Shown one piece after another: positions 3,519 to 32,295 of a stretch of 64,000 nucleotides of DNA. A program made the translations under genes and the position numbers. The stretch is taken from the IMG/VR virus record IMGVR_UViG_3300033149_002847, one strand, 5' to 3'. Position 1 is the first letter of the stretch. Every line of letters starts with the position of its first letter. This stretch comes from an uncultured virus (IMG/VR IMGVR_UViG_3300033149_002847). Its lineage: Duplodnaviria; Heunggongvirae; Uroviricota; Caudoviricetes. The notes under the pieces were generated by a model. The model worked only from the letters and a program-made list of their open reading frames with translations, did not search any database and had not been told where the DNA came from.

Positions 3519-3553
3519 AAAAAAAAGACCTACCCCGAAGGATAGGTCTTTTT
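3519..3553 (-). terminator. Intrinsic terminator with cUUCGg tetraloop
   Basis: GACCTATCC-TTCG-GGGTAGGTC followed by T8; ends 3 nt before the protease ATG. Confidence 0.85.
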
Positions 3554-4032: not shown

Positions 4033-4368
4033 TCATACTTTTAGGAATATGAGTTTATACCATCCTTTATAGCTATTAGGATTTTTATTAAAGATTTCAT
4101 CTTTAATAGGTTTGAAACGAGGTATATAAGCCATTGCAGGATCTTCTACAAATGAAGATGTGTTATTAAACAAGAACCTCATAAGTCCTTTAAATCCTTT
4201 CATCATTCCTGACATGAAAGAAAGAGAAATAAGAGCAAGCCAGGCTTTATCATTATTGTTAAAATGAATAGTCTCTTTTCTCCGGGACTTCTGCATAGCC
4301 CTATCGGCTTTTCCGTAAGCACTCATGTTTCCAAAACCTAATTGTGTTCTTCTTGATTTTCCCTTCAT
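4033..4368 (-). CDS. Hypothetical protein
   Basis: ATGA overlap with def. Confidence 0.6.
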   Translation of the reverse strand: MKGKSRRTQLGFGNMSAYGKADRAMQKSRRKETIHFNNNDKAWLALISLSFMSGMMKGFKGLMRFLFNNTSSFVEDPAMAYIPRFKPIKDEIFNKNPNSYKGWYKLIFLKV

Positions 4369-4802
4369 ACTGTTTCTCCTTTTGTTTTACATGAAATTCC
4401 GTCTAAATGATCAAATTCGTGTTGAAATACTTGAGCTTCTTTACCAGATAGCTTTCTATGCATTTCAACACCTTCTGAGTTAAACCAACTTACAAGGACC
4501 TGTTTAGGTCGTTTAATAATAAATTCAGTTCCTGGATAAGTCAGACATCCTTCCCTGAAAGTTCCAATTTTCTCACTGGGTTTTATTACCTGGGGATTGA
4601 TTATTAATACAATTCCTTTTAATCGATAATCTTTCATTATGAAAAATCTCTTAAGTATACCAACTTGTGGAGCTGCTAAACCGATACCATGATTATCTAC
4701 CATGATTTTTTTCATTTTATCAGCATCTTTCTTTACTTGTTCAAAATCATCTACAGGTATACATTTACAGCCTTCAACCTTCTTTGCTTCGACTAGCTTC
4801 AC
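4365..4802 (-). CDS. def: Peptide deformylase
   Basis: All three motifs: GIGLAAPQ, EGCLT, QHEFDHLDG. Confidence 0.95.
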   Translation of the reverse strand: MKLVEAKKVEGCKCIPVDDFEQVKKDADKMKKIMVDNHGIGLAAPQVGILKRFFIMKDYRLKGIVLIINPQVIKPSEKIGTFREGCLTYPGTEFIIKRPKQVLVSWFNSEGVEMHRKLSGKEAQVFQHEFDHLDGISCKTKGETV

Positions 4803-5571: not shown

Positions 5572-5600
5572 AGTTTACACCTGTTTATATGTTGTGTCAA
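5572..5600 (-). promoter_or_regulatory. Early-type promoter with conserved AACRRGTG spacer motif
   Basis: TTGACA-CAACATATAAACAGGTG-TAAACT. Confidence 0.8.
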
Positions 5601-5611
5601 GTAAAATATTT

Positions 5612-5980
5612 TTAAAATCCTGCATCTTCATCAAAAAGAGTATAAGACTGTTCTTCACCATCTATTAAAACATAATGACTGGCTGTTTTCATTATCTGTT
5701 CATGCTGATAATGAACAGCAGCAGATATAGTTCTAAGCTGCGTACCATGCCAGGCTCTATCATAAGTTATACTATCCATATACCCACCCATAAACCAAGC
5801 ATCACCTTTATAGTATTGTGCTATTAACTCTTTTACAGCCCACCAATAAGCACCAAAAAACTGGTAATTGGTTTTATCTTTTAGGATTAACTCAGCCAAC
5901 CCTCTTGCAGCTTGGGGGAGATCCTTTTCTGTTTTGCCGTAACTCTTAGCTATTTCTGTTGCAAATTCTTCACTATACAT
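5612..5980 (-). CDS. Hypothetical protein
   Basis: 122 aa, overlaps the end of the DarB-like gene. Confidence 0.65.
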   Translation of the reverse strand: MYSEEFATEIAKSYGKTEKDLPQAARGLAELILKDKTNYQFFGAYWWAVKELIAQYYKGDAWFMGGYMDSITYDRAWHGTQLRTISAAVHYQHEQIMKTASHYVLIDGEEQSYTLFDEDAGF

Positions 5981-17607: not shown

Positions 17608-18179
17608 ATATCCTCCATTATTAAATGACCCCATTTATTAGCCCCTGGCTTCACGTGTTCATTAAAATATTCTCTATTATACCTAATTCCATATCCATGT
17701 ACACTCTTATAGCCAGTATGAGGATCACCCCATGGATCAGCAGCTATCAATTCATCTGTTTTATCATCATATCCAATAAATACAAAGGCATGACCTAGTA
17801 ATCCGGGGAATTTCCCCGAAGTCATTACAGGTTTACATAATGCTATTTGATTAATAAAATCATCCCATGTTAAGTCTGTATGGAAATCTGAAATTCTTTT
17901 CCCTGTAACTAATGGGTCTAAAAATGAACCATACATACCATGAATTTCCGTTGGATGGTAGTCTGATAAATTAGGATATTTAGAGTCTCTAAACGCTTTA
18001 GCTCTATCAGAATCTAACAAACTATAGAAATAATCATCATCAGGTGTACCTGATTCATGCACATAAGCGATATTAGCAGCTTTATAGAACATTACCCTTG
18101 AAGTATTCATACATGCAGCAGTTGGATGTAATCTATTATTCCTTTGAGTATAATAATCTTCTGGTTCTAAAAGTATCAT
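17604..18179 (-). CDS. Papain-like (C39-like) cysteine peptidase, candidate endolysin
   Basis: QRNN...ACMNTS (Cys), GHAFVFIGYD (His), ADPWG (Asp); start re-assigned to MILLEP after GAGG. Confidence 0.7.
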   Translation of the reverse strand: MILLEPEDYYTQRNNRLHPTAACMNTSRVMFYKAANIAYVHESGTPDDDYFYSLLDSDRAKAFRDSKYPNLSDYHPTEIHGMYGSFLDPLVTGKRISDFHTDLTWDDFINQIALCKPVMTSGKFPGLLGHAFVFIGYDDKTDELIAADPWGDPHTGYKSVHGYGIRYNREYFNEHVKPGANKWGHLIMEDI

Positions 18180-18192
18180 AATTACCTCACAA

Positions 18193-20043
18193 TTATTCTT
18201 TCCTAAAAGCGGTATCAGATCTATACAGCATAGTTCCACGTTTCTCTTTTAGAGCATCTTTAAATTCATCAATAGTAAACTCTGAAACAGGACCCAGAAA
18301 ATCTGGTCTATCATACTGAGAGAGATATCCTTCTATTGCTGATTCACGACTTGGAAATTGACACATGGCTTTATCTTCATCATATTTACGTGTAAAAGGA
18401 TCTTGCTGATGTACTACATAAACCATGTCTGAAGTATCATCGGGACCCAAATAAATATCAACCCCTTCATTATCTACAGCCTTAGTCCCTCCAATCCTTC
18501 CATAATCGAAGTTCATGTAAGTTTTCCATGGTTTACCGTTAGGATCTTTGCCTTTTCGATATGATCCTTTTTTATTCTCTATTGCTATATCTAATCCATA
18601 AAACTTTTTACGACCTTGAAGTTTGTATTTACGGTCATATTCAGCAGAAGGTGTAGTAATCGTTTTTTGTTTACTCATTAATCCTTTTTTCATGGTTTTA
18701 ACTATAATTGACTTCTTGCCTGGTTTATTATCCTCTATAAGCTTCTTAAGATCGGGTGGATAATCCTTCTCATTTACTACTGGACCAAAATCATACATAT
18801 CATAAGGGGAAGGATCTTTCTTTTCATTAGAACTCTCTTTTATTGCTTTTGCCATAACTGCTCCGTTTTTTTGAGATATTAAATCAGGAGGAGGATCACC
18901 TGAAGAATCCCTAAATGACCATGATGAAGCATATTGTTTAATTGCATCAAAAGTTTTTTCATTAGAAGTATTAGATAATACAACCCCAACAGGTACATAT
19001 CTTCCAGTAGGACCGGCAAACCGTTTTACTGCTCTTTGAGCAGACGTTCTTCTGGGACAGTACATATAATGAGCTTTTATATCATATCCAGCGTTCTTAA
19101 AATTAACTACTTTGTCTACAGCAGACTTAGTAGTTTTCATAGTTGCATCAATTACAATGTTTAATTTATAAGCCTTAGCCATTGCCATTGCTTTTTCTAA
19201 TATATCACTTGATTCTTCATGAACCTCAAAAGCGTTCCAACCATCATATTCTGCAAGTTGTTTTTTTATTTCGTCTGAATCCATGATAATTGCTTTTTTG
19301 GGATCGTAAATATTCCCATCAAACCATGATTTTCCAGACCCCCCTCTTCCACCAAGCATCATAAAAGTAGGTTGTTTCCCTGCTCCCGGACTGGCATTTC
19401 TTATTTTTTCAGGTGACAACATCTTAAGTATAATCTCTTCATGCTTTTTAGCTCTGGCCTTATCATAAACAGCAGCAGCACCTTCACCACTTATTCTATA
19501 TTTATCAATAGTAGGAGTAACCCCTTTTATTTTGGCTTCAGTTTCTTTGATTTTAGCCTTAATTTCAGGGGAAGCGTTCTTTAAAACTGATTCAATGGTA
19601 GTCTCAGGATTGTTGTTTTTTTCATAATAGGAATTTGCATCAAATTGATTAGCAGGTATTTTCTCTTTGGTTACTTCTTCTTTTTTAGAAGGTTTTCCTT
19701 TTTCCTCAGTATACTTATAAACCCATTTACCATTTACCATTTTTTTAGAAATATACTTAGCTTTTTGAAGTCTTACTATTATAGATTTACTCACCTTTTT
19801 ATCACAGGCCTTTTCAACTAAACCAGCATCCTTGAGTTTTGTATAATATTCAGGATTTTCTTCCAAGTGATCTAAAGCTATTTTTCGAGCTTCAAACTGT
19901 CTATCAGTATGTTCCATTTCTTCTTTCTTGCCGATATCAAGTTGGTTTCTAATATGTTCTACTGATACACCATGTTTTTCTGCTAATTTTTGACATTCAA
20001 CCGATCCGTTAGGATTTGTCGGATTTGATTTCACTACTATCAT
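18193..20043 (-). CDS. Polyvalent protein: DUF5661-like domain, zeta-toxin-like kinase and inorganic pyrophosphatase-like domain
   Basis: EMEHT...IALDHLEENPEYYTKL; GGRGGSGKS, DSDEIK, VHEESS, IDATM; IAIENKKGSYR...DYGRI...DNEGVDIYLG...YDEDKAM. Confidence 0.75.
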   Translation of the reverse strand: MIVVKSNPTNPNGSVECQKLAEKHGVSVEHIRNQLDIGKKEEMEHTDRQFEARKIALDHLEENPEYYTKLKDAGLVEKACDKKVSKSIIVRLQKAKYISKKMVNGKWVYKYTEEKGKPSKKEEVTKEKIPANQFDANSYYEKNNNPETTIESVLKNASPEIKAKIKETEAKIKGVTPTIDKYRISGEGAAAVYDKARAKKHEEIILKMLSPEKIRNASPGAGKQPTFMMLGGRGGSGKSWFDGNIYDPKKAIIMDSDEIKKQLAEYDGWNAFEVHEESSDILEKAMAMAKAYKLNIVIDATMKTTKSAVDKVVNFKNAGYDIKAHYMYCPRRTSAQRAVKRFAGPTGRYVPVGVVLSNTSNEKTFDAIKQYASSWSFRDSSGDPPPDLISQKNGAVMAKAIKESSNEKKDPSPYDMYDFGPVVNEKDYPPDLKKLIEDNKPGKKSIIVKTMKKGLMSKQKTITTPSAEYDRKYKLQGRKKFYGLDIAIENKKGSYRKGKDPNGKPWKTYMNFDYGRIGGTKAVDNEGVDIYLGPDDTSDMVYVVHQQDPFTRKYDEDKAMCQFPSRESAIEGYLSQYDRPDFLGPVSEFTIDEFKDALKEKRGTMLYRSDTAFRKE

Positions 20044-20161
20044 TCTTTTCCCCCTGGAACCAAGGCTCTTCCTGTATAGTTTTATTTAACATATCACAAT
20101 TAAGACATACCATCATACCTGATTCCATTTCCATTTCTTTTCCACAATCTGGACATTTCAT
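20009..20161 (-). CDS. Small zinc-ribbon protein
   Basis: MKCPDCG...VCLNC; ATGA overlap with MuF. Confidence 0.55.
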   Translation of the reverse strand: MKCPDCGKEMEMESGMMVCLNCDMLNKTIQEEPWFQGEKNDSSEIKSDKS

Positions 20162-21261
20162 AATATTATATCTCCTATTTCTGGATAGTAGCGATCCCAT
20201 GATCCCCGGCAAAAAGGATGGTTTCCAGACTCGGACCACCACCAATCAGCCCTACTGCGACCTATGTTTGATTTCCCACTCCATAGAGCAATGGAAGCAA
20301 CAGGATCGTTTATATTCTCATTCTGGAGAGGAACATCACTCCAACGAGCTATGACCTGCTCCTGAGTAGCTTTTATGCAAAATGAACAAGTTCTATCATC
20401 TGAAAACTCTCTACGAATAAAATATAGAGATTCTCCTGGCAAAGCATCCTTCATTTGCTCTTCAATATATTCTGAGTTAAATATATTAACCCCTTCAGTA
20501 TCAACTATTTTATCCCAGTTCTTATTTAAGTCTCCAAAATTATAAAATAAATCTTGTGATATTTCACCCTTGCTTTTTCCGGCTAAAAATCCTTGATCTA
20601 ATGTATCTCTTATTTTTTTTCTGGTAGATTCATTAATATCTGTAATGTAATTCCCTACCACTCTTTCACGGAATTTTAGTCTGTTGTAGTTATCTGGAAA
20701 AGCATCATTCAGCTCTGAATAGTTAGTCAATGAACTCCATTTCTTGCCCTTCACTTTTAAAGAATTTAGTGAAGTATCTCTTAAATCTTCCAGTGAATTA
20801 GTTTTTCTTAAGTTTGCAATTATACGGCCTACCGAGGCCTGAGAGATTACAAACTCCTTTTTCATTGCTCCGACATTTCTGTTTAGGAATTTATCTATTG
20901 CATCCAATAATCTATCTAAATCTTTCTGGTTAATTACTTGACCAGTTTCAGGGTTCCAGATTATTTCTTTCCCTAACTTTGTAGCACCTGGTTCAATACT
21001 TTTTTTAAAAGTACTCACTGGACGTATACCAAGGGTACTACAGAGTCTTGAATACAGATCATCCATGATTAGACCAAACTTAGCTATATACTTGTCATAT
21101 AGCTCTTGTTGAGCAATAAAGGGGAAATTTTCCTTATGATATTCTTTATGTTCAATAGTTGCCGGGACCTGCATAACTTTAGATATTTCTTTAATTGCTT
21201 TCTGGAATTTATCTTTCCGGTTAGAATCGGTTAAATTTTCTATTTCAAGATTGATTACCAT
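20158..21261 (-). CDS. MuF-like minor head protein
   Basis: RKKIRDTLDQGFLAG, IVDTE, RTCSFC, HPFCRG. Confidence 0.8.
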   Translation of the reverse strand: MVINLEIENLTDSNRKDKFQKAIKEISKVMQVPATIEHKEYHKENFPFIAQQELYDKYIAKFGLIMDDLYSRLCSTLGIRPVSTFKKSIEPGATKLGKEIIWNPETGQVINQKDLDRLLDAIDKFLNRNVGAMKKEFVISQASVGRIIANLRKTNSLEDLRDTSLNSLKVKGKKWSSLTNYSELNDAFPDNYNRLKFRERVVGNYITDINESTRKKIRDTLDQGFLAGKSKGEISQDLFYNFGDLNKNWDKIVDTEGVNIFNSEYIEEQMKDALPGESLYFIRREFSDDRTCSFCIKATQEQVIARWSDVPLQNENINDPVASIALWSGKSNIGRSRADWWWSESGNHPFCRGSWDRYYPEIGDIIL

Positions 21262-21296
21262 ACCCTAAGAATATCAATCTTAGGGTATTAAATCAA
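21260..21296 (-). promoter_or_regulatory. Promoter for a leaderless MuF mRNA, overlapped by an 11-bp inverted repeat
   Basis: TTGATT-17-TATTCT-TAGGGT-ATG; ATACCCTAAGA/TCTTAGGGTAT; no SD. Confidence 0.6.
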
Positions 21297-21310
21297 GATG
21301 CTGTAAGGAT

Positions 21311-21838
21311 TTAATCCATTATCATAGGCATAATTATAGAAGTCATATTACCTGCTCTAAACTTTATAGCCTTATCTTCTCCAAATACGTCAACTTCCCA
21401 GTAACTACCACCTACTAATAAATCATCAACAAACTTTAAACTTATAGCATTTTTGTCGGATAATTTTCTATACAACTTAGCCAGCTCTTTTGAGTAGTCT
21501 CTGTAATATTCAAATGTAAAAGTTATATGCTCACCTTCAGGCATAACCCTTTTATAATTAGGGAATTCCCCTATAGTTTCTTTATCAGCTTCAGCAAACC
21601 AAACTGTTTTTGTATTAGCTTTCAATACTTTATACAATTTTTTATCTTCAAAATTATAATGATTGTCACCTAATTCTAAAATATGAAGCCTTCTACCATC
21701 CGTACTGATTAGTTTATTATTTTCACAGTAAACAAAATTCATAAAAAACCTGGTCTCATCATCAGACACCGCCTTGCTGACAAACATAAATTCCTTTGCA
21801 TGAACCTTTAGTATTTCAATAAACTTTCCGTATTTCAT
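21311..21838 (-). CDS. Truncated beta sliding clamp (DnaN)-like protein
   Basis: AVSDDETRFFMN.V, STDGRRL, GEFPNYKRVMP, IIMPM; only 175 aa. Confidence 0.7.
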   Translation of the reverse strand: MKYGKFIEILKVHAKEFMFVSKAVSDDETRFFMNFVYCENNKLISTDGRRLHILELGDNHYNFEDKKLYKVLKANTKTVWFAEADKETIGEFPNYKRVMPEGEHITFTFEYYRDYSKELAKLYRKLSDKNAISLKFVDDLLVGGSYWEVDVFGEDKAIKFRAGNMTSIIMPMIMD

Positions 21839-21861
21839 ACTATTCTCCTTTTCTTTTTAAT

Positions 21862-22206
21862 TTAATTATTCTTAATGTATAAAACATTATCATATACAAG
21901 CTTCCAGTCCAAAGGAAGTCCCATATTCATAACAATATTCACAGCTACCGATATAGCTTCCTTTATTTCTGGATCAGGATCTTCATTCAGGATAGCCAAA
22001 CTTTTGTAAAGATAACCACACTGTTTATTTATCTCTACACTTACCAATTCTGGATTATCACCCCAATTATAAATAGAATAAGCTTTAATAGAAGTATAAA
22101 TATAAGGGAAATTCTCTTTAGTCCAGATTGAATAGTCATTCAAGGATTCCCCAAATAAACTAAAAACCAGTAGTAACATTACTAATATAATAATTATTTT
22201 CTTCAT
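21862..22206 (-). CDS. Hypothetical secreted protein
   Basis: MKKIIIILVMLLLVFSLFG signal peptide. Confidence 0.6.
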   Translation of the reverse strand: MKKIIIILVMLLLVFSLFGESLNDYSIWTKENFPYIYTSIKAYSIYNWGDNPELVSVEINKQCGYLYKSLAILNEDPDPEIKEAISVAVNIVMNMGLPLDWKLVYDNVLYIKNN

Positions 22207-22487
22207 TTTTTATCCTCCGCAATCTTTATTCTCTCAATAAGATACATAACTGCATCTGCTCTTGATATTTGACCTTCTTGTCTAAGGTTATAGGCTATCT
22301 GTTTAAAGTCTTCTATGTTTTTATCCATAGGCCAATTACCTCTGGGTTCGTTCAGGTTTGCATTTTCAAATACATCACACTGAATAATAGTTCCTGCTAA
22401 TGGTCCAGTGCCAGCATATTCTATATCTGAATATAAAGCAGGACACAATCCAAATTGTGTAAATTTGCATTTTTTACATAGATTCAT
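22203..22487 (-). CDS. Hypothetical protein
   Basis: Coupled ORF with Cys motif. Confidence 0.55.
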   Translation of the reverse strand: MNLCKKCKFTQFGLCPALYSDIEYAGTGPLAGTIIQCDVFENANLNEPRGNWPMDKNIEDFKQIAYNLRQEGQISRADAVMYLIERIKIAEDKK

Positions 22488-22750
22488 GATCCCTCCTTAA
22501 TTTTTACTGTGCCACAGTCAGGACAAGCATACATAGCAACATGTGTACCAATCACCACAGCTTCATGATCATCACTATTAGGAATATTATTTCTAGGTGT
22601 TGATCTATAAGGTTCCGTTTCTCCACCTACTATTTTAATAAATTCTTTAGGTAAATCACCAGTATATTCATCTGTAGAATATCGATCTCTTCCATCATCA
22701 TATCCGCATATACATTTCATAGGGTTCTCCTTATTTTTATTATATTCCAA
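22484..22750 (-). CDS. Zinc-ribbon hypothetical protein
   Basis: CICG...ACPDCG. Confidence 0.55.
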   Translation of the reverse strand: MEYNKNKENPMKCICGYDDGRDRYSTDEYTGDLPKEFIKIVGGETEPYRSTPRNNIPNSDDHEAVVIGTHVAMYACPDCGTVKIKEGS

Positions 22751-22758
22751 TTTATAGA

Positions 22759-23034
22759 TTAAGTTAATAACCTATAAGCCTTATTCCCTAGATCTCTAAC
22801 ACCTTCAAGATCCACTTCACAAAACGAAACAAACCCTCTAAACCCTGAAGTTTCCTGGATCTCATTTACAAAATTATCAATAAATATCTCCTCCGGAAGT
22901 TCTATATTTAAACCTCTGGATACTTTTTCAATATCCATTGCCATAATTTGTACTCTCATTTGATCAGCTCTATCTAAGTCAGTTCCTGCCAACAAATCAA
23001 TTGTCATAATATCTGCTATTGGTATGTTTTCCAT
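22759..23034 (-). CDS. Hypothetical protein
   Basis: SD AAGGAGAG. Confidence 0.6.
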   Translation of the reverse strand: MENIPIADIMTIDLLAGTDLDRADQMRVQIMAMDIEKVSRGLNIELPEEIFIDNFVNEIQETSGFRGFVSFCEVDLEGVRDLGNKAYRLLT

Positions 23035-23046
23035 AGTCTCTCCTTT

Positions 23047-23232
23047 TTAATACTCCGCAGCCATATTCTGAATAAGTTTCAACATTTCACTTGCTCCAGC
23101 TTCTATTTGTGAACTTACAGAATGTTTCCTAAGATCATTAAGGGCAAACCCCAGAAGGTACAAATCACCTTCTGATAGCTCTACATAATGTACCAGATTG
23201 CCTTCATCTCTGCTTGTTCCATTTACTTGCAT
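23047..23232 (-). CDS. Hypothetical protein
   Basis: SD GGAGG, coupled ORF. Confidence 0.55.
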   Translation of the reverse strand: MQVNGTSRDEGNLVHYVELSEGDLYLLGFALNDLRKHSVSSQIEAGASEMLKLIQNMAAEY

Positions 23233-23717
23233 AATTCCTCCAGTAAAGCAATTTCTTTATGTTTAGCCTTAATATCATTTTTAGCGTTAATTAATGCATA
23301 CCTGTTCAATTCCCCAGAAACTACGTCTTTTGTTATTTTAGCTAAAAGCCTTTGTTGGTACTTAATAACAGCTTTTATTGCAGGTTTAAAATACTGGCTA
23401 TCTTCAGGAATAGTGAACCGATCTTTTTCAAAATAATCAGTATATACATCGGTATCATTCAGTATCTGGAATTCGGTTTTAATTTCTTCAGAAAAATCTT
23501 CATATGTTTTAGAATAAACTCTTAAAACCCGTTCATCTTTAGAATTATGACCATATGATATAAAGCATTTATGAAGTCTTCCAGTTGAATCTTTAATGCC
23601 ATTATAGAAGAATTTTAATTTACTGTTACTTTTTTTTATTCCTATAAAATCAATTATTTCAGTAATATTATCTTTATCATTTTTAACAGGCTCAGGAAGT
23701 TTTACTATTTTTAACAT
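23223..23717 (-). CDS. Hypothetical protein
   Basis: SD AAGGAGAG, 164 aa. Confidence 0.65.
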   Translation of the reverse strand: MLKIVKLPEPVKNDKDNITEIIDFIGIKKSNSKLKFFYNGIKDSTGRLHKCFISYGHNSKDERVLRVYSKTYEDFSEEIKTEFQILNDTDVYTDYFEKDRFTIPEDSQYFKPAIKAVIKYQQRLLAKITKDVVSGELNRYALINAKNDIKAKHKEIALLEELCK

Positions 23718-23751
23718 TTTTTCTCTCCTTTCGATACGGAATATCCCAGAT

Positions 23752-24012
23752 CTAAATACTTTCTCTATAATCTTCCAAAGTATATATCTTAGTATTCACA
23801 CCTGAAGAAAGTATAACAGGTTCTTCTATGAAGAATTCTTCTTCTTTACCGTTTAAAGTAACCCCGTCTAACCAAGTTAAGCCAATGCAGTGATTATTGA
23901 ATTTGGATTTGATTAAATAACCAGAAGCACCTTTAATTACTTCATAATTATCATTGCCCCAGAATACTTTCTTACCATCATCTACAGCCTGTTTAATTTC
24001 GTTAACGTCCAT
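23752..24012 (-). CDS. Hypothetical early protein
   Basis: SD AAAGGAGAG; first gene after a motif promoter. Confidence 0.65.
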   Translation of the reverse strand: MDVNEIKQAVDDGKKVFWGNDNYEVIKGASGYLIKSKFNNHCIGLTWLDGVTLNGKEEEFFIEEPVILSSGVNTKIYTLEDYRESI

Positions 24013-24050
24013 AATCTCTCCTTTAGGGTTTCTTACCCTCTCACTATTAT

Positions 24051-24079
24051 AGTTTACACCTGTTATCTGATATTGTCAA
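24051..24079 (-). promoter_or_regulatory. Early-type promoter with conserved AACRRGTG motif
   Basis: TTGACA-ATATCAGATAACAGGTG-TAAACT. Confidence 0.8.
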
Positions 24080-24098
24080 GGGAATTTAAAAAATAGAT

Positions 24099-24147
24099 AA
24101 AAAACCCCCAGGAAAGGAGAGTAACCCAGGGGAAAAGCGAGGCTTTT
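24099..24147 (-). ncRNA. Candidate small RNA of about 50 nt with an anti-SD loop; doubles as a terminator
   Basis: Promoter TTGACA-17-TAATAT (24181-24153), then AAAAGC-CTC-GCTTTT hairpin, CCCCTGGG-TTACTCTCCTTT-CCTGGGGG and T6. Confidence 0.55.
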
Positions 24148-24177
24148 AATGAATATTAGGGTTTATTTCCTTGTGTG

Positions 24178-25289
24178 TCAAGTAATTAAGCCTTTTAAAA
24201 TATGGACAATTATATCGACTGTCCATCCATCTCCTAAACAACTATATATTTGATTATCAGATAATCCAGAACCTTTGAAAAAATTATCTGGTACAGTTTG
24301 GAGCCTACAACATTCAATAGGTGTTAATTTTCTAACTTTATATTTATCCAAATCTATAACTACACTTTGCCTATCTACCGTATTTAGAGTGTATGATTTG
24401 TCTGGATCTTCTTTAAAACCTGCACCATTTTGATTTTTGTTTATGAATTGATCGGATATCAAATATAATCCAGGTTTTGCACCACCTCCACCGCCTTCAG
24501 CCTTTAAGGTTACTGATTTATTATTGACACCGTAAACTCTTCCTGTTGCTCCACCTGATTCATATAAATTAAACAATTCACCTGATATAAAAGTACCATT
24601 CCATCTATTAGCATATCCCTCTTGAATAGCTCTTGATTTTTCAGGGTTTAAATTACACCATTTTTCATTCTCAAGTATTCTTGCTTTCACATATTTTTCT
24701 GCTTTCACCGTTAAGTAATACTTCTCATCAACTTCACTTTCAGGTTGCAGAATGTCTTTTAATAAAATACCCTTATCTTCTGGTTGCTGTATTTCACTTC
24801 CAAATAGATCATTTCCTGTACCTGGAATATTGGTCCAATATAAACGCTTTCTTGATTGAGCAGTAAGAAGAGAGGAATTTATCTTCACAGGAAGTACACC
24901 TAATCTTCTTGAAATTTCTATTTCTGCTTGCTTGTTCATTGGTACATTTTCTAACAAGAAATATACATCAGGATTCTTTTCCCTCAACTCTCCTAGTATC
25001 CTAAAATAATCCATAATCAGACCCGATCTAGGATCATCAAATTTTAATTGTTTTCCCATAACAGAAAACCCCTGACATGGTGATCCACCCATTAAAATAT
25101 CTACATCATAATCATATCCTGAAACTTTCGTGACATCACCAATATAAATATTATCAGGGAAACAGTTTTGACTTGCTTTTATTTTTGATGGTGTAATTTC
25201 GGAAGCATAGTATTTGTCAACCTTTATTCCTATACGCTCTAAAGCAAGCCTACCCCCCCCATTCCATCGAAAAGTGATAATATATTCAT
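24178..25289 (-). CDS. C5 cytosine DNA methyltransferase, frameshifted at a G8 tract (25253-25260)
   Basis: MNILSLFDGMGG (motif I) in one frame; RLALER...YYASEI...GDV...GGSPCQGFS, LENV, QSRKR, RKLTPIECCRLQ, GDGW in the other; one extra G joins them. Confidence 0.88.
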
Positions 25290-25549
25290 GCTGCTATTTC
25301 TAATCCTTCATTGTTCCAGATTCTTCCATTGTAAGATATTTCAGCAATTTTAACACCATTTTCAAACACCTGACCACCATTCCAATTTCCACCACCAAGA
25401 TTATATTCTGAAATATATTTCCGGCATTTCTCCGATGCTTCTTGTAGAGTATCAACATGTTTTATAAATTCAGGACTAATTGAATGATAAGGATCTTGAC
25501 AATAATCGGGATTACCGCATGATTTTAAAGATACAACATATTTTTTCAT
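25286..25549 (-). CDS. Hypothetical early protein
   Basis: SD AAAAGGAGAG; GGGNW...ISYNGRIW. Confidence 0.65.
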   Translation of the reverse strand: MKKYVVSLKSCGNPDYCQDPYHSISPEFIKHVDTLQEASEKCRKYISEYNLGGGNWNGGQVFENGVKIAEISYNGRIWNNEGLEIAA

Positions 25550-25576
25550 TATTAACTCTCCTTTTACTACATAATT

Positions 25577-25605
25577 AGTCTACACCCGTTAACATGTTAT
25601 GTCAA
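25577..25605 (-). promoter_or_regulatory. Early-type promoter with conserved AACRRGTG motif
   Basis: TTGACA-TAACATGTTAACGGGTG-TAGACT. Confidence 0.75.
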
Positions 25606-26124
25606 TACATCTTTTATTATCTGGTCAATATTATAATCTGCATGAGACTTCCAGAAGGGTCGCCATTTATTATTTAAACATATTTTGTTTTCTATTTGTT
25701 TAAACCAAAATGGAACACTATAAACCAGACTACCCTTATTATAAAATAACATTGATTTTTTATTAGTTAATTTATTTGTAGTTCTTGGTCCATCAATTGA
25801 AATTATGTTAAATCCTGAATTATATTCACCAAGTATTTGTGTAATTCCTCCACCCATACTGTACCCAAAAATATATATTTCATGAGGTGCATATATATTT
25901 GATTGTTTAATTATAAAATCATTCATCCATCTTGCATATTTCTTGAATCCTTTATGGACTTTACAAGCTGCTAATATATCATATTCTCTAAAAGCAATAA
26001 AATCTGATTTCCAATCTTCTTTATGGTTTGTAGGTTTTAAGTAAAAGATAAGCTTTTCATTTACAAATTCAAACCACCCTTCTATCCCTTCGTTAGTATT
26101 ATCGTCATTGAAAGATATTCTCAT
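25597..26124 (-). CDS. Alpha/beta hydrolase (lipase class 3-like)
   Basis: VHKGF, GYSMGG nucleophile elbow, C-terminal His (SHADY). Confidence 0.7.
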   Translation of the reverse strand: MRISFNDDNTNEGIEGWFEFVNEKLIFYLKPTNHKEDWKSDFIAFREYDILAACKVHKGFKKYARWMNDFIIKQSNIYAPHEIYIFGYSMGGGITQILGEYNSGFNIISIDGPRTTNKLTNKKSMLFYNKGSLVYSVPFWFKQIENKICLNNKWRPFWKSHADYNIDQIIKDVLT

Positions 26125-27596
26125 ACTTTTATCCTTACTATATCATTGATTGATTTGCTAAACTCATCTTCATAACCACCACCAAATTCATCTTCGTTAA
26201 AATCTTCTTCTTGACCTTCCTCTGGTTGTTGTCCTGCTTGCCATGCCTGGAGAACTTGAGGACTCTGAAGACCTGGAACATCAGCCCAGTCTTCCTTGTG
26301 TTCCTTAAGATCGTTTTCACGTCTTATTTCATTCATAGATTTATATGTTTCAAGATCTGACTTAGTAGCTTTTAAAGTCATTTCAGCATCATCTTGCTCA
26401 AAACCATGGAATACTATTCTAAACCTTGAATCTATTTCATCAACATAATTCTGAAAATGTTGCTCTAAAAATGTAAGCGAATTCCCTATTCCTTTATCGT
26501 CTGAGTATTTCCGGCCTTCAGCAGAACCGGACTCCATAATCTTAGCTCCCTTTTCAGACTTTATACCCATAGACTCGATATCAACACCAAAAATAGAACC
26601 AATCGACATATAAAGAGTATCTTGCCAGCGTGAAAACTGCATATCTTGATTAGAAGATCCCATTGCTTGCCACTGAATAGAAGCTTTATCACTTCCCTTC
26701 CCGGAAGGAATTATTGGTATTCCCCATTTTCCTGAAGCTCCCGACACACCACCAGGACCCATAACATCAATTAAGTAGTCCTCAATCTCTTCAACTTCCT
26801 CAAATCCTATATCACCATTAAGCAGCAACATACCTCTAGGTAACTTATCTTCAGTAAAAGCTCCAGCATTAAAATTGAATGAATTAATAAGTGATACCAC
26901 AAGATCAACTGCTTGTTCTATTTTACTATAACCATATCCATAGTGCAAAATATCAGTCCGGGGATTTTGAAATTGGAATAGCATCATTCTATCAGTATAT
27001 TGAGTTTGTACCTGACTATGAATTTGTTGAATATACCGTATATCCTCATCCCCATCATAACCTTCTTCAGTACAGCGAACGATTGTAGCAGCGTCAATAG
27101 CCTCAAAAGCTAATAATTCACCGCCTCTCGTCCAAAGCTTCTCTGAGGCTGTCTGGTCAAGGGTTAGAACATCTCTTAAGATCTTCTTAGTATACATAAT
27201 TAGATTGTCTTCATGATCTTTACTGATCGCTTTACTATTTGCCATTTTAGGGGAATTAGTCGCAAGTATAAACTCTTGTATTTCCTTAGCTTTCTTTTTA
27301 TCTGACTTGGACATTTTTGCATCAGGATCTTTTAGCTCTATTGCAAAGCCTCTTTTACCTTTAGCAGACATAGGCCTCATATAAGGTATTGTCTTGTCAA
27401 TAATATGACCTATTACTGTGTTAAGTAACCAGGCTTTTTCTGCAATCCTCCTGAACAATCTCATAGAGTATTGTTTTTGAGGAGACATTAGCCCCCTGGC
27501 ATAATTACTGTATAAGGGATCATATCTTTTTGACTTAAACTTCTCTTGTCTTTCAAGTGATTTCATTGCTTTTCTCATTTCATTGGGTGATACCAC
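26121..27596 (-). CDS. Portal protein
   Basis: DVLTLD, IDAATI, NPRTD..GYGYSKIE, PRGML, DMQFSRW, MNEIR; directly after TerL. Confidence 0.9.
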   Translation of the reverse strand: MVSPNEMRKAMKSLERQEKFKSKRYDPLYSNYARGLMSPQKQYSMRLFRRIAEKAWLLNTVIGHIIDKTIPYMRPMSAKGKRGFAIELKDPDAKMSKSDKKKAKEIQEFILATNSPKMANSKAISKDHEDNLIMYTKKILRDVLTLDQTASEKLWTRGGELLAFEAIDAATIVRCTEEGYDGDEDIRYIQQIHSQVQTQYTDRMMLFQFQNPRTDILHYGYGYSKIEQAVDLVVSLINSFNFNAGAFTEDKLPRGMLLLNGDIGFEEVEEIEDYLIDVMGPGGVSGASGKWGIPIIPSGKGSDKASIQWQAMGSSNQDMQFSRWQDTLYMSIGSIFGVDIESMGIKSEKGAKIMESGSAEGRKYSDDKGIGNSLTFLEQHFQNYVDEIDSRFRIVFHGFEQDDAEMTLKATKSDLETYKSMNEIRRENDLKEHKEDWADVPGLQSPQVLQAWQAGQQPEEGQEEDFNEDEFGGGYEDEFSKSINDIVRIKV

Positions 27597-29184
27597 GGTT
27601 TCGCCTCCTGCCAGCGTTAATCATTCTATCTAATTCAGCATTTCCAGTATTAGCTTTTTTTCGTTTAGTTACAATATTAGTTTTTTGCTTTTTATATCCC
27701 TCGTAAAACCTGGACTTACGGCCTTCACTATCTTCTATCCCTACAGTAGCCAAGGCCAGTGACCAGAATTTATCAGCATGAGAATCTTTTGTAGATCCAT
27801 CGTACTTACTATATTTCATAGCCGTGAGAGTTTTTCGGATAGAATGAATATCTGCATGTAATCTCCGGTTCATTGGAAATACATACTCTCTTCTTTCACA
27901 TCCCAAGTATACTTTGTTAGCCATATCTTCTTTGGATTCATTAGTAAATTGAACACCATGAGCAACTAAAGGGAATTTCTTCTCAGCCCATTCAGCAAAT
28001 TCCATACCTAGACCATTTCTATCTATCAAGAATTGCCTTATTGGAAGAGAATTCAGGGCAAGGGTTACAAATTCCCTTTGTTCATCAAAAGGTGTATTCT
28101 TTAGATCGTAACTCATCCATATATGCTTTTTACCGTCCTTAACTCCGATCAAAGTAAATACTGAAGCATCTTTTGTACGTCCCATATCCCACCCGGCATA
28201 CAAAAACCCGTGAATTTCGGGATCATAAGCAGGAGCCGTTACACTTTCAAATATAGGTTTTCCGTCTGGAGTGAACCCTGTACATATTTCAGGTATATTA
28301 ACACCCTTTAGAAATTCACTTATATTCTGGTATTCATACTGCTCTACATCTTGAGGGGTACAGGACATTATCATTTCAAGACTTATAAAGGCCTCTGAAT
28401 CATCAGTGAATTCACATTCAAACTCTTGTTTGAATGAGGAAAGAGGCATTGAAGCAAATATTTCTTTAAGTGTATCTGTTCCAAATCTTTCCACTCTTTC
28501 CCATATAGTCATACCAGAAGCTTCAGCAATAGCCATTTTAACATCTTTACAGAGTGCTTCAGCCCAAAACCAAGGAATAGTTAATCTTGTATAGCTCTTA
28601 TATCGCTCTTTTTCTGAAAGTATTTCGTAAAATTTCCCAGACTTAGACAGTGGAGTAGATCCTATTGAAAGCAAACCACCTCTGGTTAAACAGGGAAGTG
28701 CCGATGTGTATATATTTTCATCATCTTGATGGAAGGCAAATTCATCTAAACTTATACCACCGAAAGGGTTAGAGGTTCCGAATCCTCTTAATCCTCTATT
28801 AGGTAATGATATTAATTGTGATTTACTTTTTTTGCCTTTATCCCAGAATTCCAATGATGTTTTAGAATCAGTTGCTAGAGGTTTTATCCATTCTTCAGGC
28901 ATATTCATGAGTGCATTTCTTGCATCACTTATTTTATTTACAGCATCATGCATCCCGTAGGAAACAAAAACATTCTGATATTTAGAAACATCTGGGGCAT
29001 TAGCCTCTATAACACTTTTTAATGATGTTATATAAGACCAACCTATACGCCTTGATTTGTTGACTATTAGAAATTTTTCACTTGCTTTAAGATACCAGTC
29101 TTGCCAAAAATCCAACTTAAACTCTGGATTCATCTCCGTAAGTGCAGCAGTAGCTATAATTGATTTCTGTTCACCGGTCCACAT
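27580..29184 (-). CDS. terL: Terminase large subunit
   Basis: KSRRIGWS (Walker A), LDEFAF, STP, FKQEFECEF, GWDMGRTKD, IDRNGLG, HADKFWSLAL. Confidence 0.93.
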   Translation of the reverse strand: MWTGEQKSIIATAALTEMNPEFKLDFWQDWYLKASEKFLIVNKSRRIGWSYITSLKSVIEANAPDVSKYQNVFVSYGMHDAVNKISDARNALMNMPEEWIKPLATDSKTSLEFWDKGKKSKSQLISLPNRGLRGFGTSNPFGGISLDEFAFHQDDENIYTSALPCLTRGGLLSIGSTPLSKSGKFYEILSEKERYKSYTRLTIPWFWAEALCKDVKMAIAEASGMTIWERVERFGTDTLKEIFASMPLSSFKQEFECEFTDDSEAFISLEMIMSCTPQDVEQYEYQNISEFLKGVNIPEICTGFTPDGKPIFESVTAPAYDPEIHGFLYAGWDMGRTKDASVFTLIGVKDGKKHIWMSYDLKNTPFDEQREFVTLALNSLPIRQFLIDRNGLGMEFAEWAEKKFPLVAHGVQFTNESKEDMANKVYLGCERREYVFPMNRRLHADIHSIRKTLTAMKYSKYDGSTKDSHADKFWSLALATVGIEDSEGRKSRFYEGYKKQKTNIVTKRKKANTGNAELDRMINAGRRRNRGITQ

Positions 29185-29190
29185 AATCTA

Positions 29191-29219
29191 AGTATATATG
29201 TTTTAGGAATAAATATAAA
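29191..29219 (-). promoter_or_regulatory. Promoter for a leaderless terL mRNA
   Basis: TTTATA-17-TATACT-TAGATT-ATG; no SD. Confidence 0.5.
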
Positions 29220-29231
29220 CCCTATAAGGAG

Positions 29232-29456
29232 TTAGATTATTCTCTCTTTCCATAGTTCACAAGATCCATGCTTTCTATCTGATATCATACCAGTATAATC
29301 TTTATCTGTATAATGAAAAACTATGCAAGCATATAAGCCTGATTCTTCTAATACAGAACCCTTAAACGGTTCTTTATTCCAAGGATGCTTTGTTAAGGCT
29401 AAATAATGTATACATTCACAACAACACTGGCCTTTATAACCTTTATCACAGCTCAT
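29232..29456 (-). CDS. Cys-rich hypothetical protein
   Basis: CCCEC...C...CELW. Confidence 0.55.
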   Translation of the reverse strand: MSCDKGYKGQCCCECIHYLALTKHPWNKEPFKGSVLEESGLYACIVFHYTDKDYTGMISDRKHGSCELWKERII

Positions 29457-29664
29457 TATCTTCTCTAATAATATTGTATTTTTCTTCTAACTCATACATT
29501 TGATACTCTTCAGGGTCTGAGTAGTCACATTCACCTTCTTGACACTCTACATACCATAGCCCTGTAGCTGTATCGCCATGTACTCCCTCTTCATAAAAAG
29601 CATATAGTAAAGATCCACAAACAGGACAATTATTATCTAATTCTTTCACTGGCTGGATTTTCAT
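29446..29664 (-). CDS. Zinc-ribbon hypothetical protein
   Basis: CPVCG...C..C. Confidence 0.55.
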   Translation of the reverse strand: MKIQPVKELDNNCPVCGSLLYAFYEEGVHGDTATGLWYVECQEGECDYSDPEEYQMYELEEKYNIIREDNEL

Positions 29665-29769
29665 GACTTCCTCTCTATCCCATTAAAATACAATCTATCC
29701 ATCACATACATGCAGCAGGGGCATATATTATTATCCATATTGAATTTAAACTGACAACCTTTGCATGGA

Positions 29770-30576
29770 TTATTCACCCTTTGCTTCCTTAAATTTTGGT
29801 GTATTATCTTTTATACTATTTGTAAAAGTTGTTAATTGAGATATACACATATTTAAATTTTCTTCCATCTCTGGTAAAAACATAGATTTCAACTCCTTTA
29901 GTCTATCTTTAATATCATATTTCAAATTCCATGTGCGATTTGTATTAATTCCTGAATCTGTTAAAACTTGTTTAATAATTGCATATTCTTCATTCTCTTT
30001 TTTTAGTCTTCTATTCTCTTCATCTACAAGTTCTATTTTTTCACGTATAATCTTCTGGAGAGTTTTGGATACTTTATATCCTAGTTCTGCATAATATTTT
30101 TTAGTTTTTAACCAATTCTCCCAAAACTCAGCTTTTGTCTCTTCATTGTAAAAACGATTATTATTTGTTATTTCTGCTCTGCTTATTAAAATATATTTAT
30201 ATATATCAGCAGGAATATCAACATTAATATAAGTTGCCTTTTTCTTTTTATAAAGACGTTTACCGTTTTTGGAAGTCCAATATAAACCTATGTTTTCTGG
30301 AAGTTCAGATGGATCTATCAATCCAGCAGGACATACAAAATAAAAACAATTACAGTATTTCAGGTAATGGTGCCATTTTTCATCTTGCATATAATCAGAC
30401 CTGGAAACTTTTATTTCATACCCTGTAACCATAGGATTTGCATAACTGCGAGCTATTGCAAGACCATCAAGTTTTAGAAGTCCCTCAACATAACTTTGAC
30501 CATTTTTACATTCAGGAACGTAGACATCTTTAGAGTGTTTTCTTTTTAACAATGCCTGTATGTCATGTGCTGTCAT
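29770..30576 (-). CDS. MmcB-like PD-(D/E)xK nuclease
   Basis: KLDGLA...GYEIKVSRSDY..DEKW..YL.YCNCFYFVCP. Confidence 0.8.
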   Translation of the reverse strand: MTAHDIQALLKRKHSKDVYVPECKNGQSYVEGLLKLDGLAIARSYANPMVTGYEIKVSRSDYMQDEKWHHYLKYCNCFYFVCPAGLIDPSELPENIGLYWTSKNGKRLYKKKKATYINVDIPADIYKYILISRAEITNNNRFYNEETKAEFWENWLKTKKYYAELGYKVSKTLQKIIREKIELVDEENRRLKKENEEYAIIKQVLTDSGINTNRTWNLKYDIKDRLKELKSMFLPEMEENLNMCISQLTTFTNSIKDNTPKFKEAKGE

Positions 30577-30669
30577 ACTCCCTCCAACACGTAAATCAAA
30601 GTTTTCTCTGGTTTATATTCAATATCCAAAGGATCGTATAATGTTGTTTCCTTAAACTCTTCTCTTATA

Positions 30670-30888
30670 TTATCCATTATATTTTATTCCTTGGCATAAT
30701 TTTATTATTTTAATACACTCAGGACAAGTAACCACTTTTTTATTAGTAGGGAATAGCTCTCCTCCGTTGTTAGAGTCTATAAGATCATATGCTAAACCGC
30801 ATAATGTAAACTCACCACCCATAAGTACAGAATTTATTAAATGAACTCCATTTTTATTCTTTAAATACTCTTCTATTTCAACTTTCAT
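30670..30888 (-). CDS. Zinc-finger hypothetical protein
   Basis: VH...TLCG...VTCPEC. Confidence 0.55.
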   Translation of the reverse strand: MKVEIEEYLKNKNGVHLINSVLMGGEFTLCGLAYDLIDSNNGGELFPTNKKVVTCPECIKIIKLCQGIKYNG

Positions 30889-31144
30889 TTTTTATATTCT
30901 CCCATGTGTCGTTGTAGACTTTTTCTATTATTTTTATTTCTTTTTTAAATAATTTTTCGATTTGTTTTGATGTTCTTGAAGATCCATAATCCTGTTTTAA
31001 TAAATCAATATAACTAAGTGTTAGTTTTTCTAACGCCTCAATAGCCTCTTTGTAGTCTGCTTCGAGTCGTCTTACAGGATCTTCAGGACATAATTGATAA
31101 TTACCAGTTAATACTTTAATAGTCTCTATACGTTTAATCTCCAT
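30878..31144 (-). CDS. Hypothetical protein
   Basis: Coupled ORF. Confidence 0.55.
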   Translation of the reverse strand: MEIKRIETIKVLTGNYQLCPEDPVRRLEADYKEAIEALEKLTLSYIDLLKQDYGSSRTSKQIEKLFKKEIKIIEKVYNDTWENIKNES

Positions 31145-31145
31145 T

Positions 31146-31658
31146 TTACACCTCTTTAAATTTATATTCCGGATATTGAGTTAAAAACAGTGATCTTTTA
31201 AGAGAATAAACTGAAGTTCTTACACCTTTCACATCTACCACTATCTTTTTACCGTTTTCAATATACATAAAGTCTGCAATATATCTTCTGGCAGCTAACT
31301 TTTTCCCATTCCATTTTACTGAAGGACATATTTCAAATTTGGGTTGTAAAACTAGATCCGTTATTAATCCGACATTTTCCATTATTTTCAATTCTGAATA
31401 ATAATTAGCCTCTTTCTTCGAGTCGAACTTAGTATTATCCACCACTGTTTTAATATTATTATATTTTGATTTCTTTTCTGGAAGAGAGATATTGCCTTTT
31501 ATATAAATTATTTTACCGCTTATTAGTAGACCATTTACTTCTTGATAACTATATTCTCTATTACCTAAATGAGAAAATAATTCTTCCCTAGTCATAGCTC
31601 CGTGTTCTTTAAGGACTGCTATTATTGAAGATATTGTATTACTCATACTTCCACCCAA
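31146..31658 (-). CDS. DUF1064 family endonuclease with N-terminal extension
   Basis: SKYNN...FDSKKEA..Y, LQPKF, YIADF.Y, VVDVKG. Confidence 0.8.
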   Translation of the reverse strand: MGGSMSNTISSIIAVLKEHGAMTREELFSHLGNREYSYQEVNGLLISGKIIYIKGNISLPEKKSKYNNIKTVVDNTKFDSKKEANYYSELKIMENVGLITDLVLQPKFEICPSVKWNGKKLAARRYIADFMYIENGKKIVVDVKGVRTSVYSLKRSLFLTQYPEYKFKEV

Positions 31659-31924
31659 TTTCCGTTATATTCCACTAAAGATTCAAAATTAGGATATCTA
31701 CACTCTTTAAGTTTATTCAAAGCTTTTATTATTACATCTATAGATTTGTCTGTTTTAAATTCCATTGCCATTATAGGCTCTGTAGGATCATCCCATGATA
31801 GAGACTCTCCTGGTTTATGTTTTACTGGCAACCTACCTAGTGTAACGGCTAAAGCTTTTGTTGTACTATTTCGTTGTATCCCTACTGCAATTGAACCATC
31901 AAAGATTAAAGTTGAATATCTCAT
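31643..31924 (-). CDS. Hypothetical protein
   Basis: Coupled ORF. Confidence 0.55.
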   Translation of the reverse strand: MRYSTLIFDGSIAVGIQRNSTTKALAVTLGRLPVKHKPGESLSWDDPTEPIMAMEFKTDKSIDVIIKALNKLKECRYPNFESLVEYNGNWVEV

Positions 31925-32295
31925 CCTTTCAACCTAAAATCTTTTATTGCTTCAGGTTTTGTTCTAGCCCAGAAAGTTACTTTTTCAATTACACCCATAT
32001 CATAAAATATGGATTTTTTAGCCATTTTAAACGATTTATGATATTCAGACACTTCTGTTTCATCACCACAAGAAGGACAATATTGATAATCTTTTTTTAA
32101 TATCTCAAAACAAGTAGGGCAGCGCATCGGGACCCCTTCTATTACCCATACCAATTCAGCTATATACATTACAGGCTTATCTAGTTTTTCTATACTACCC
32201 TCTAGCCTTTCAAAAGCTTCTTGAGGAGAAATAGTAAATAACCCCTCATTGGTCGCTCTTTCGCATGTTACAGTAACGCCAGTTGCTGTTGCCAT
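31921..32295 (-). CDS. Zinc-ribbon hypothetical protein
   Basis: CPTC...YCPSCG; SD AAGGAGAG. Confidence 0.6.
   Translation of the reverse strand: MATATGVTVTCERATNEGLFTISPQEAFERLEGSIEKLDKPVMYIAELVWVIEGVPMRCPTCFEILKKDYQYCPSCGDETEVSEYHKSFKMAKKSIFYDMGVIEKVTFWARTKPEAIKDFRLKG

Follow-up and report, generated by a model that had tools for sequence, protein, structure and literature searches.

The 64,000-nucleotide stretch of DNA analyzed here, called the window throughout, is a phage-like contig from an uncultured virus of the Caudoviricetes (IMG/VR record IMGVR_UViG_3300033149_002847). It has a G+C content of ~33%, encodes a terminase, a portal, a protease, and a major head protein, and carries its genes from 279 to 56341 on the minus strand. 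One of its units begins with the terminase and portal genes, continues with two small open reading frames (ORFs), and ends with a C5 cytosine DNA methylase-like gene (C-terminus ...KGLIT*). Between this methylase and an 86-amino-acid (aa) ORF that starts at 24012 lies a short junction with two promoter-like sites, P1 and P2. Two hairpins are located between these sites, and the second resembles an intrinsic terminator with an enlarged pyrimidine loop (Table 1). The loop complements the Shine-Dalgarno (SD) sequence of the 86-aa gene, and the arrangement may represent a terminator that doubles as an anti-SD element for the next unit.

The preliminary description of this locus proposed a tiny, self-contained RNA on the minus strand, transcribed from a near-consensus promoter that overlaps the methylase stop codon. 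A sequence of the form TTGACA-17-TAATAT is indeed present, and the methylase TGA (24180-24178) falls within its TTGACA element. RNA folding likewise recovers, as had been described, a small hairpin (at 24147-24133) and a terminator with a large loop, which measures 12 nucleotides (nt). The minus-strand RNA from 24150 to 24090 has a minimum free energy (MFE) of -15.5 kcal/mol (z -2.05; 8 of 200 shuffles equal it). The plus strand folds less well (-11.9 kcal/mol, z -1.29; 26 of 200 shuffles equal it) because two G-U pairs turn into C-A mismatches there, and assignment to the minus strand is upheld. A plus-strand role as an SD for an antisense ORF or as a CsrA-type GGA loop was rejected, as no start codon follows and the stems carry these mismatches.

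The second hairpin has a G+C-rich stem, is followed directly by U6, lies 46 nt past the methylase stop, and is on the transcribed strand, as is typical of intrinsic terminators. Its loop is longer than the 3-8 nt allowed in the consensus scan used here, which gave only shorter alternative pairings of the same site. A dedicated scan found two convincing sense-strand terminators in the window, this one and another at ~3520-3553 that has a 4-nt loop. A scan of the whole window at Rfam gathering thresholds returned only a tRNA. Below those thresholds, the best covariance scores were 21.7 bits for LhrC (gathering 110), 20.8 for NsiR1 (39), and 21.4 for preQ1-II (47); nothing was found in Rfam at E ≤ 1 in L010, L035, or L040.

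When the hairpin is defined loosely, as a stem of at least 5 base pairs (bp) with CTCCTT in a loop of 8-15 nt, the window contains one, compared with 1.3 in shuffles. Within the window alone, the anti-SD hairpin could therefore be a chance occurrence. Both this lack of excess and the rarity of convincing terminators in the window fit a plain intrinsic terminator, whose pyrimidine loop would be kept for reasons other than the SD (ancestry, avoidance of purine-rich ribosome-binding sequence, or loop composition) and whose SD matches would be incidental. Because the window taken alone shows no excess, the weight of the argument rests on related phages.

The SD of the 86-aa gene, AAAGGAGAG, occupies 24024-24016 in a 30-nt leader. 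The loop had been reported to complement the SDs that precede the starts at 24012, 23717, 23034, 25549, and 59793. All five are confirmed, and AAAGGAGAG stands before four more starts (47004, 35701, 33804, and 32295). The 9-mer CTCTCCTTT occurs 10 times over both strands, compared with 1.29 +/- 1.06 times in shuffles. Nine of these copies are complements of SD sites, and only the copy at 24113-24121 is sense with respect to local transcription. When the junction RNA is hybridized in silico to the 107 start regions of the window, the start at 24012 ranks first (-24.3 kcal/mol), an energy that none of 1000 shuffled start regions matches. The predicted duplex consists of the loop 9-mer, a 4-nt bulge, and then the terminator's 3' arm and U-tract paired to UAAGAAACCCU.

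Table 1. Features of the junction and its flanking genes, with positions in the window
Feature	Position	Strand	Basis or remark
Terminase, first gene of upstream unit	27580-29184	(-)	
Portal, followed by two small ORFs	26121-27596	(-)	
C5 cytosine DNA methylase-like ORF, 304 aa	24178-25092	(-)	Pfam PF00145 E 1.5e-24; PHROG 116
P1 promoter-like site: -35 TTGACA, 17-nt spacer, -10 TAATAT	24181-24176 (-35); 24158-24153 (-10)	(-)	Promoter scan, 10 of 12
Relic of 3' end of ~146-aa gene, reads LTHKEINPNIH*, contains P1	24146-24181	(-)	Translation; aligns with C-terminal codons in L015, L004, L017, and L036
Small hairpin, 6-bp stem, loop CUC	24133-24147	(-)	RNA fold; occupies the place of the relatives' first anti-SD hairpin
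Terminator hairpin, 8-bp stem (6 G-C, 2 G-U)	24105-24132 (stem 24132-24125/24112-24105)	(-)	-12.0 kcal/mol alone
Terminator loop UUACUCUCCUUU, 12 nt	24113-24124	(-)	
Anti-SD 9-mer CUCUCCUUU within loop	24113-24121	(-)	Predicted to pair with 24016-24024 in read-through fold
U-tract, U6 then A	24098-24104	(-)	Also predicted to pair with A-rich part of downstream leader
P2 promoter-like site, TTGACA-N13-GGTGTAAACT (TTGACA-17-TAAACT)	24051-24079	(-)	Motif scan
Leader and SD of next gene, UAAGAAACCCU + AAAGGAGAG	24016-24035	(-)	Complementary to terminator loop, 3' arm, and U-tract
86-aa ORF, function not assigned, first gene behind P2, predicted target	23752-24012 (ATG at 24012)	(-)	PHROG 35422 E 1e-6; no match in Pfam search

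Searches anchored on three genes (the portal, one of ~146 aa, and one of 367 aa) recovered relatives, and six junctions were compared: those of the window, L015, L004, L036 (the same as G001:C47), L017, and L046. The five related phages are collinear with the window, with terminases 64-80% and portals 62-80% identical. In each of the six phages, the junction is located behind the terminase, the portal, and one or two variable genes. All six also share a common order. A TTGACA site lies at the end of the upstream gene, one to three hairpins follow, of which the last is the terminator, and a further promoter-like site then precedes the SD of the next gene. Consensus P2-like sites are correctly placed in five of the six; the second promoter is not clear in L036.

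Members of this family appear to be rare. An identical 4.6-kb contig, L001, adds no information, and it was the only match when viral contigs were searched for the exact stem with a free loop. A loop-plus-stem pattern matched only L004 and, by chance, L037 and L039, a result so sparse that the family must be small in the collections searched. The GenBank phage collection yielded nothing close apart from a 138-nt methylase match, and a loose hairpin search in C47 and L017 gave only noise besides the known pair. The methylase was considered as a carrier of the element and rejected. L002 and L003 have this gene (76%) in another context without the element, which therefore does not travel with the methylase.

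Loop conservation in relatives, which had been put forward as a check on the original idea, is borne out. The window, L015, L004, and L036 together contain seven hairpins that display CU-rich loops of 12-14 nt on six different stem sequences. L015 has UUACCUCCUUUU in its first hairpin, on a stem other than the window's, and UUAUUCUCCUUU on a stem identical to it. The loops UUUCCUCCUUUU and UUAACUCCUUUU of L004 are carried by two further stems, and UUUCCCUUCUCUUU and UUUUACUCCUUUU of L036 by two more. L017 instead has CCCCCAC in its first hairpin and a terminator loop of 4 nt, and the long terminator hairpin of L046 bears UUCCCCC at its tip. The occurrence of similar loops on unrelated stems suggests that the loop is an anti-SD sequence that appears to have been kept by selection.

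The genes behind these junctions are not all homologous, and their SDs are of two flavors: AAGGAG(AG) in the window, L015, and L004, and GGGGGA in L017, L046, and L036. Start regions with GGGGG are rare in these phages (1 of 16 in L046, 1 of 20 in L017, 3 of 131 in L036, and 3 of 107 in the window). CUCCUU-type loops accompany AAGGAG SDs, and CCCCC-type tracts accompany GGGGGA in L017 and L046. The longest stretch of perfect complementarity between a junction and its own start measures 9 nt in the window, 7 in L015, 9 in L004, 5 in L036, 7 in L017, and 8 in L046. These cognate matches sum to 45, which is reached by 4 of 720 permutations, and the cognate duplex energies sum to -99.9 kcal/mol, which is reached by 5 of 720. 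Thus, at the level of sequence, both the complementarity and its co-variation across phages are evident.

These comparisons make a plain terminator a rather unlikely explanation. Loops of 12-14 nt are costly for termination and yet are kept on six stems, loop flavor switches along with the rare GGGGGA SD, and few permutations do as well as the cognate pairings. Points in favor of incidental matches are that pyrimidine tracts pair with any strong SD, as the off-diagonal matches of 8-9 nt in the AAGGAG group illustrate, and that L008 has a homologue of the 86-aa gene (62%) without the element.

The core of the universal 16S ribosomal RNA tail includes CUCCUUU, which is common to the window loop. 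The preliminary description envisioned a trans-acting mimic of the 16S tail that would silence early or host mRNAs led by an SD but spare late genes, taken to be leaderless. Nine phage genes do carry the exact complementary 9-mer. However, the late genes are not leaderless, with SD cores preceding 23 of the 32 ORFs in the structural block (279-29184; 36 of 54 in 29232-56341), and the element itself sits inside this block. The displayed tract is not a fixed copy of the 16S tail either; it changes with the SD flavor of the adjacent gene, and the CCCCC-type tracts of L017 and L046 do not copy 16S sequence. Even in the window, the loop extends its match toward the phage's own GGAGAG SDs rather than toward the 16S tail. 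It also seems implausible that a single small RNA could stoichiometrically titrate every SD, and global silencing of this kind is very improbable.

Thermodynamic folding predictions were made for RNAs that run from the junction into the next gene and for RNAs that begin at the inferred P2 start. In the window, the probability that the SD is paired is 0.98 in the read-through RNA and 0.02 in the P2 RNA, and its predicted partner is the terminator loop. The corresponding values are 0.68 and 0.02 in L015, where the partner is the 3' side of the first hairpin, and 0.64 and 0.06 in L004, where it is the loop of the first hairpin. In L046, the SD is predicted to pair with the terminator tip (0.99, compared with 0.09 for the P2 RNA), and in L036 with the 3' side of the first hairpin (0.68 in the read-through RNA). 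L017 gives 0.93 and 0.16, and its SD partner is part of a local 14-bp hairpin. Other genes of the window folded in contexts of equal length have a mean probability of 0.44, with 2 of 68 at 0.9 or above and 11 of 68 at 0.64 or above; for genes of the relatives, the mean is 0.52, and 26 of 95 are at 0.64 or above.

Known phage genes provide a precedent for such a change in fold. In the T4 genes e, soc, 49, and I-TevI, the SD or AUG is paired in long upstream transcripts, and shorter transcripts, whose promoter is located at or within the 5' strand of the pairing, lack that strand and are translated (PMC3014915). In silico, the junction RNAs behave in the same manner, with the SD paired to upstream RNA in the long transcripts. 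L017 is predicted to have exactly the local layout of gene e: a hairpin at 8767-8802 buries its GGGGGA SD, and the 5' arm holds the -10 element of P2 (TATACT). The window, L004, and L046 differ from gene e in that the 5' strand lies 80-110 nt upstream, in the loop of the preceding terminator and across a whole promoter. Another difference is that the phage hairpin described here would also terminate transcription.

The reading that best accommodates these observations is that the element occludes the SD of its neighbor in cis, for which a probability of about 45% seems reasonable. The hairpin would act as the intrinsic terminator of the upstream packaging-methylase unit, and its enlarged loop would store an anti-SD for the next gene. 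In transcripts that read through, the loop would nucleate pairing with the SD of the 86-aa gene ~90 nt downstream. In the window, pairing could then extend into the 3' arm and the U-tract such that the ribosome site is buried. P2 lies between the anti-SD and the SD, and transcripts initiated there would lack the anti-SD and be translated. Translation of the first gene would therefore depend on its own promoter, as in T4 e, soc, and 49. In this scheme, we infer that the promoters are used, that read-through occurs, and that translation is affected. Relative to known examples of occlusion, what is new in the proposed arrangement is the placement of the inhibitory strand in the loop of the preceding terminator.

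Several considerations weigh against cis occlusion. Nine base pairs cannot be accommodated in a 12-nt loop without strain. Folding kinetics are ignored in MFE folds of 140-180 nt, and the SD is made only after the terminator hairpin has formed. In addition, efficient termination leaves few read-through transcripts in need of silencing, and the two anti-SD loops per junction in L015 and L004 exceed the need of one SD. Assignments of P2 start sites, start codons, and read-through are themselves inferred, and the GTG starts of L017 and L036 were chosen after the SD was seen. Target prediction on phage starts, which had been suggested earlier, selects the adjacent start for the junction RNA as a whole, but the fit of the loop alone is spread over eight other starts at -13.0 kcal/mol or lower (5980, 25549, 35701, 23717, 47004, 23034, 32295, and 59793).

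The comparison between phages has weak points as well. It includes six junctions, and those of the window and L015 are not independent. L015 has the same hairpin as the window, and its own start reaches only -10.7 kcal/mol and ranks fifth of seven. L036 is mismatched, with AAGGAG-type loops facing a GGGGGA SD and a longest match of 5 nt, and the apical loop of L046 holds only CCCC because UUC is paired. Off-diagonal matches within the AAGGAG group are as long as 8-9 nt. A cruder cross-table, made with 33-nt start regions and a misplaced L017 start, had no clear diagonal; the corrected table showed one.

The complementarity that would serve occlusion in cis could also serve an RNA acting in trans, either the released 3' hairpin or a ~49-nt RNA transcribed from P1 (24146 to ~24098); the element could work in cis, in trans, or both. 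Acting in trans, either RNA would block initiation on P2 mRNAs by pairing its loop, 3' arm, and U-tail with the P2 leader and SD, and would bind other AAAGGAGAG-led genes more weakly. LhrC, RNAIII, and the cuckoo RNAs would be its models. The complementarity, its co-variation, and the first rank of the adjacent target fit this possibility as well as they fit occlusion in cis. The odds that P1 functions as a promoter are judged to be roughly even.

A perfect TTGACA with a 17-18-nt spacer is found in five of the six junctions, with a -10 element of TAATAT in the window and L036, TAGTAT in L015 and L017, and TAAAAT in L046. L015 has a predicted start at the foot of its first hairpin. Coding constraint no longer applies in the window and L046, and there two unrelated methylase genes end on a TGA inside TTGACA; a conserved module thus seems to begin at the -35 element. 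The -10 element of L036 uses the stop codon, which also speaks for a real promoter. On the other hand, P1 lies within the last codons of the ~146-aa gene in L015, L017, and L036 (TTG-ACA) and in L004 (TTG-ACC). Its conservation may be at the protein level because these are ...LLT(E/D/R)... codons. The window site is itself a relic of coding sequence, since the 11 codons containing it align with the end of that gene. In L004, the site is degraded to TTGACC with a shifted -10 element. Sites that match at 10 of 12 positions occur about once per 1.3 kb on the minus strand, and promoter-like sites are not enriched in the region 18000-32000 (78, compared with 66.7 +/- 8.7 expected).

P1 also lacks the GGTGTAAACT signature of the four clear promoters of this phage. 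These share the motif TTGACA-N13-GGTGTAAACT and are located at 5572-5600(-), 24051-24079(-), 25577-25605(-), and 59060-59088(+); one of them reads TAGACT. A motif scan of the window gave five matches with three or fewer mismatches, compared with 0.61 expected. Such conservation is far beyond the needs of sigma-70 and suggests an extra recognition element. L004 has the motif as well, and L015 has a near copy; it also turns up in L011 and L013, viral contigs that are unrelated and were set aside. The L011 terminator has no anti-SD loop.

Bacterial small RNAs with CU-rich loops offer further parallels for action in trans. The LhrC RNAs of Listeria monocytogenes (RF00616) carry a CU-rich motif followed by U residues in hairpin and terminator loops, with which they bind the SD regions of their targets and block translation; of their three CU-rich sites for SD binding, one is the terminator loop (PMC4132741). 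LhrC is chromosomal, stress induced, and trans-acting, with the motif UCCC. In contrast, the element described here is phage-borne, displays CUCCUUU, has the adjacent gene as its best target, and does not belong to the LhrC family at the score given above. The cuckoo RNAs of Alphaproteobacteria (RSs0680/CcsR, ar14, and NfeR1) consist of two to four adjacent hairpins with highly variable stems, and one conserved anti-SD-like motif is carried in every loop (PMC4615179). Likewise, two adjacent anti-SD hairpins are present in L015, L004, and L036, and such twin loops resemble the multiple sites of both LhrC (PMC4132741) and cuckoo RNAs (PMC4615179). However, the cuckoo motif CCUCCUCCC is absent from the phage junctions, where loops are of the CUCCUUU type; the window has only one such hairpin and is not a member of the group. 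The second hairpin of the phages is also the terminator of a protein-coding operon, and host range and genomic context differ. On balance, action in trans is somewhat unlikely.

A more elaborate version considers the unit from 24181 to the U-tract to be a mobile, self-contained small-RNA gene. Its product would be a ~50-nt, SD-flavor-specific anti-SD acting in trans on the first gene of the adjacent operon and on eight other AAAGGAGAG-led genes, with unrelated genes having recombined up to the -35 element. This is unlikely.

The position of P1 also allows a comparison with the PR'-tR' region of phage lambda. P1 would constitutively make a short terminated RNA until an antiterminator lets polymerase into the downstream structural genes. 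The junction has this form, since a long structural operon is preceded by a promoter with a strong terminator ~50-100 nt or less behind it, and the layout is kept in five of the six junctions. Nevertheless, P2 comes immediately after the terminator, a gene for an antiterminator was not identified in the window, and the anti-SD would silence the first late gene. Such a mechanism is hardly to be expected here.

The ~146-aa gene raises another possibility, that the loops are operators for a Com-like zinc-ribbon protein encoded upstream in the relatives or for some other RNA-binding protein. This gene is found directly upstream of the junction in L015 (4581-5015), L004 (5693-6133), L036 (1501-1932), and L017 (8196-8645). 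Its product has an N-terminal zinc ribbon, replaced in L017 by a helix-turn-helix, and it adjoins DNA methylase genes, much as com adjoins mom (PMC6483171). The versions from L015 and L036 match Pfam Zn_ribbon_Com, the family of Mu Com (E 1.1e-4 and 9.2e-4), and L017, with its helix-turn-helix, has no CU-loop hairpins. However, both matches score under the curated cut-off (22.0 and 19.1 bits, compared with 22.9), and the RNA module persists in the window and L046 though the gene is gone. A protein site would also not be expected to follow the SD flavor of the neighboring gene, and a protein operator has very little probability. Readings other than occlusion in cis, a small RNA in trans, and a plain terminator are, even taken together, quite improbable.

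Two other systems bear on how the 3' end of a transcription unit might control translation. In icaR of Staphylococcus aureus, a C-rich anti-SD in the 3' UTR (untranslated region) pairs with the SD and controls translation (PMC3868564). The icaR sequence pairs with the SD of its own mRNA, whereas in the phages the match is between the 3' end of one unit and the SD of the following unit. The intrinsic terminator loops of the Escherichia coli small RNAs SdsR, RseX, and ArrS have regulatory roles beyond termination, and their effect, far upstream in the fepA leader, is reported as likely independent of base pairing (PMC11979758). The phage loops, by comparison, display a direct SD complement.

If occlusion in cis is correct, phages would have a compact means of insulating neighboring units at the level of translation, and leaky termination would not cause proteins to be made at the wrong time. 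The same model would explain oversized, conserved pyrimidine loops on some phage terminators, a feature for which a literature search found no description in phages. Such loops would then provide a readable signal of operon boundaries and of promoter-dependent translational control in uncultured phage genomes.

Some additional observations concern the genes around the junction and the relatives. Of the ~146-aa gene, only the last 11 codons are left in the window; among 401 genomes of the phylum of G001, the gene is found only in G001 itself. The G001 contig C47 (L041-L044) is 84 kb long, is binned in a Spirochaetaceae metagenome-assembled genome, and is collinear with the window over most genes at 33-72% protein identity. 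This binning is either a clue to the host or a mis-binned phage. The Pfam C5-methylase match of the window methylase begins only at model position 66, and stops are present in the single frame that was translated from the 193 nt upstream (25093-25285). The gene (24178-25285(-)) may be N-terminally truncated or split; a full-length C5 methylase is present in L014 and L016.

Elsewhere in the window, a ~700-nt non-coding stretch at 59089-59790(+) lies behind one copy of the promoter motif. It contains an Rfam tRNA match over 154 nt (59516-59669; 30.4 bits, compared with a threshold of 29), and ARAGORN finds no tRNA in 59000-59850. The match may represent a degenerate tRNA or one that carries an insertion, and a second tRNA-like stretch at ~59255-59330 was seen by eye only. 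The other convincing terminator (3516-3553(-)) is strong, with a 14-bp stem and the loop UUCG, and forms a hairpin on both strands. It ends a few bases before the ATG of a protease/scaffold-like gene (2040-3515) that has no SD. The structural block also includes genes for a 1958-aa DarB-like methyltransferase/helicase protein (5973-11849(-)), a peptide deformylase (4365-4802(-)), and a Ulx-like anti-restriction protein (5612-5980(-)). When the loop alone is considered, its strongest match in the window is to the SD region of the last of these genes, GGAGAGUAA (-15.0 kcal/mol).

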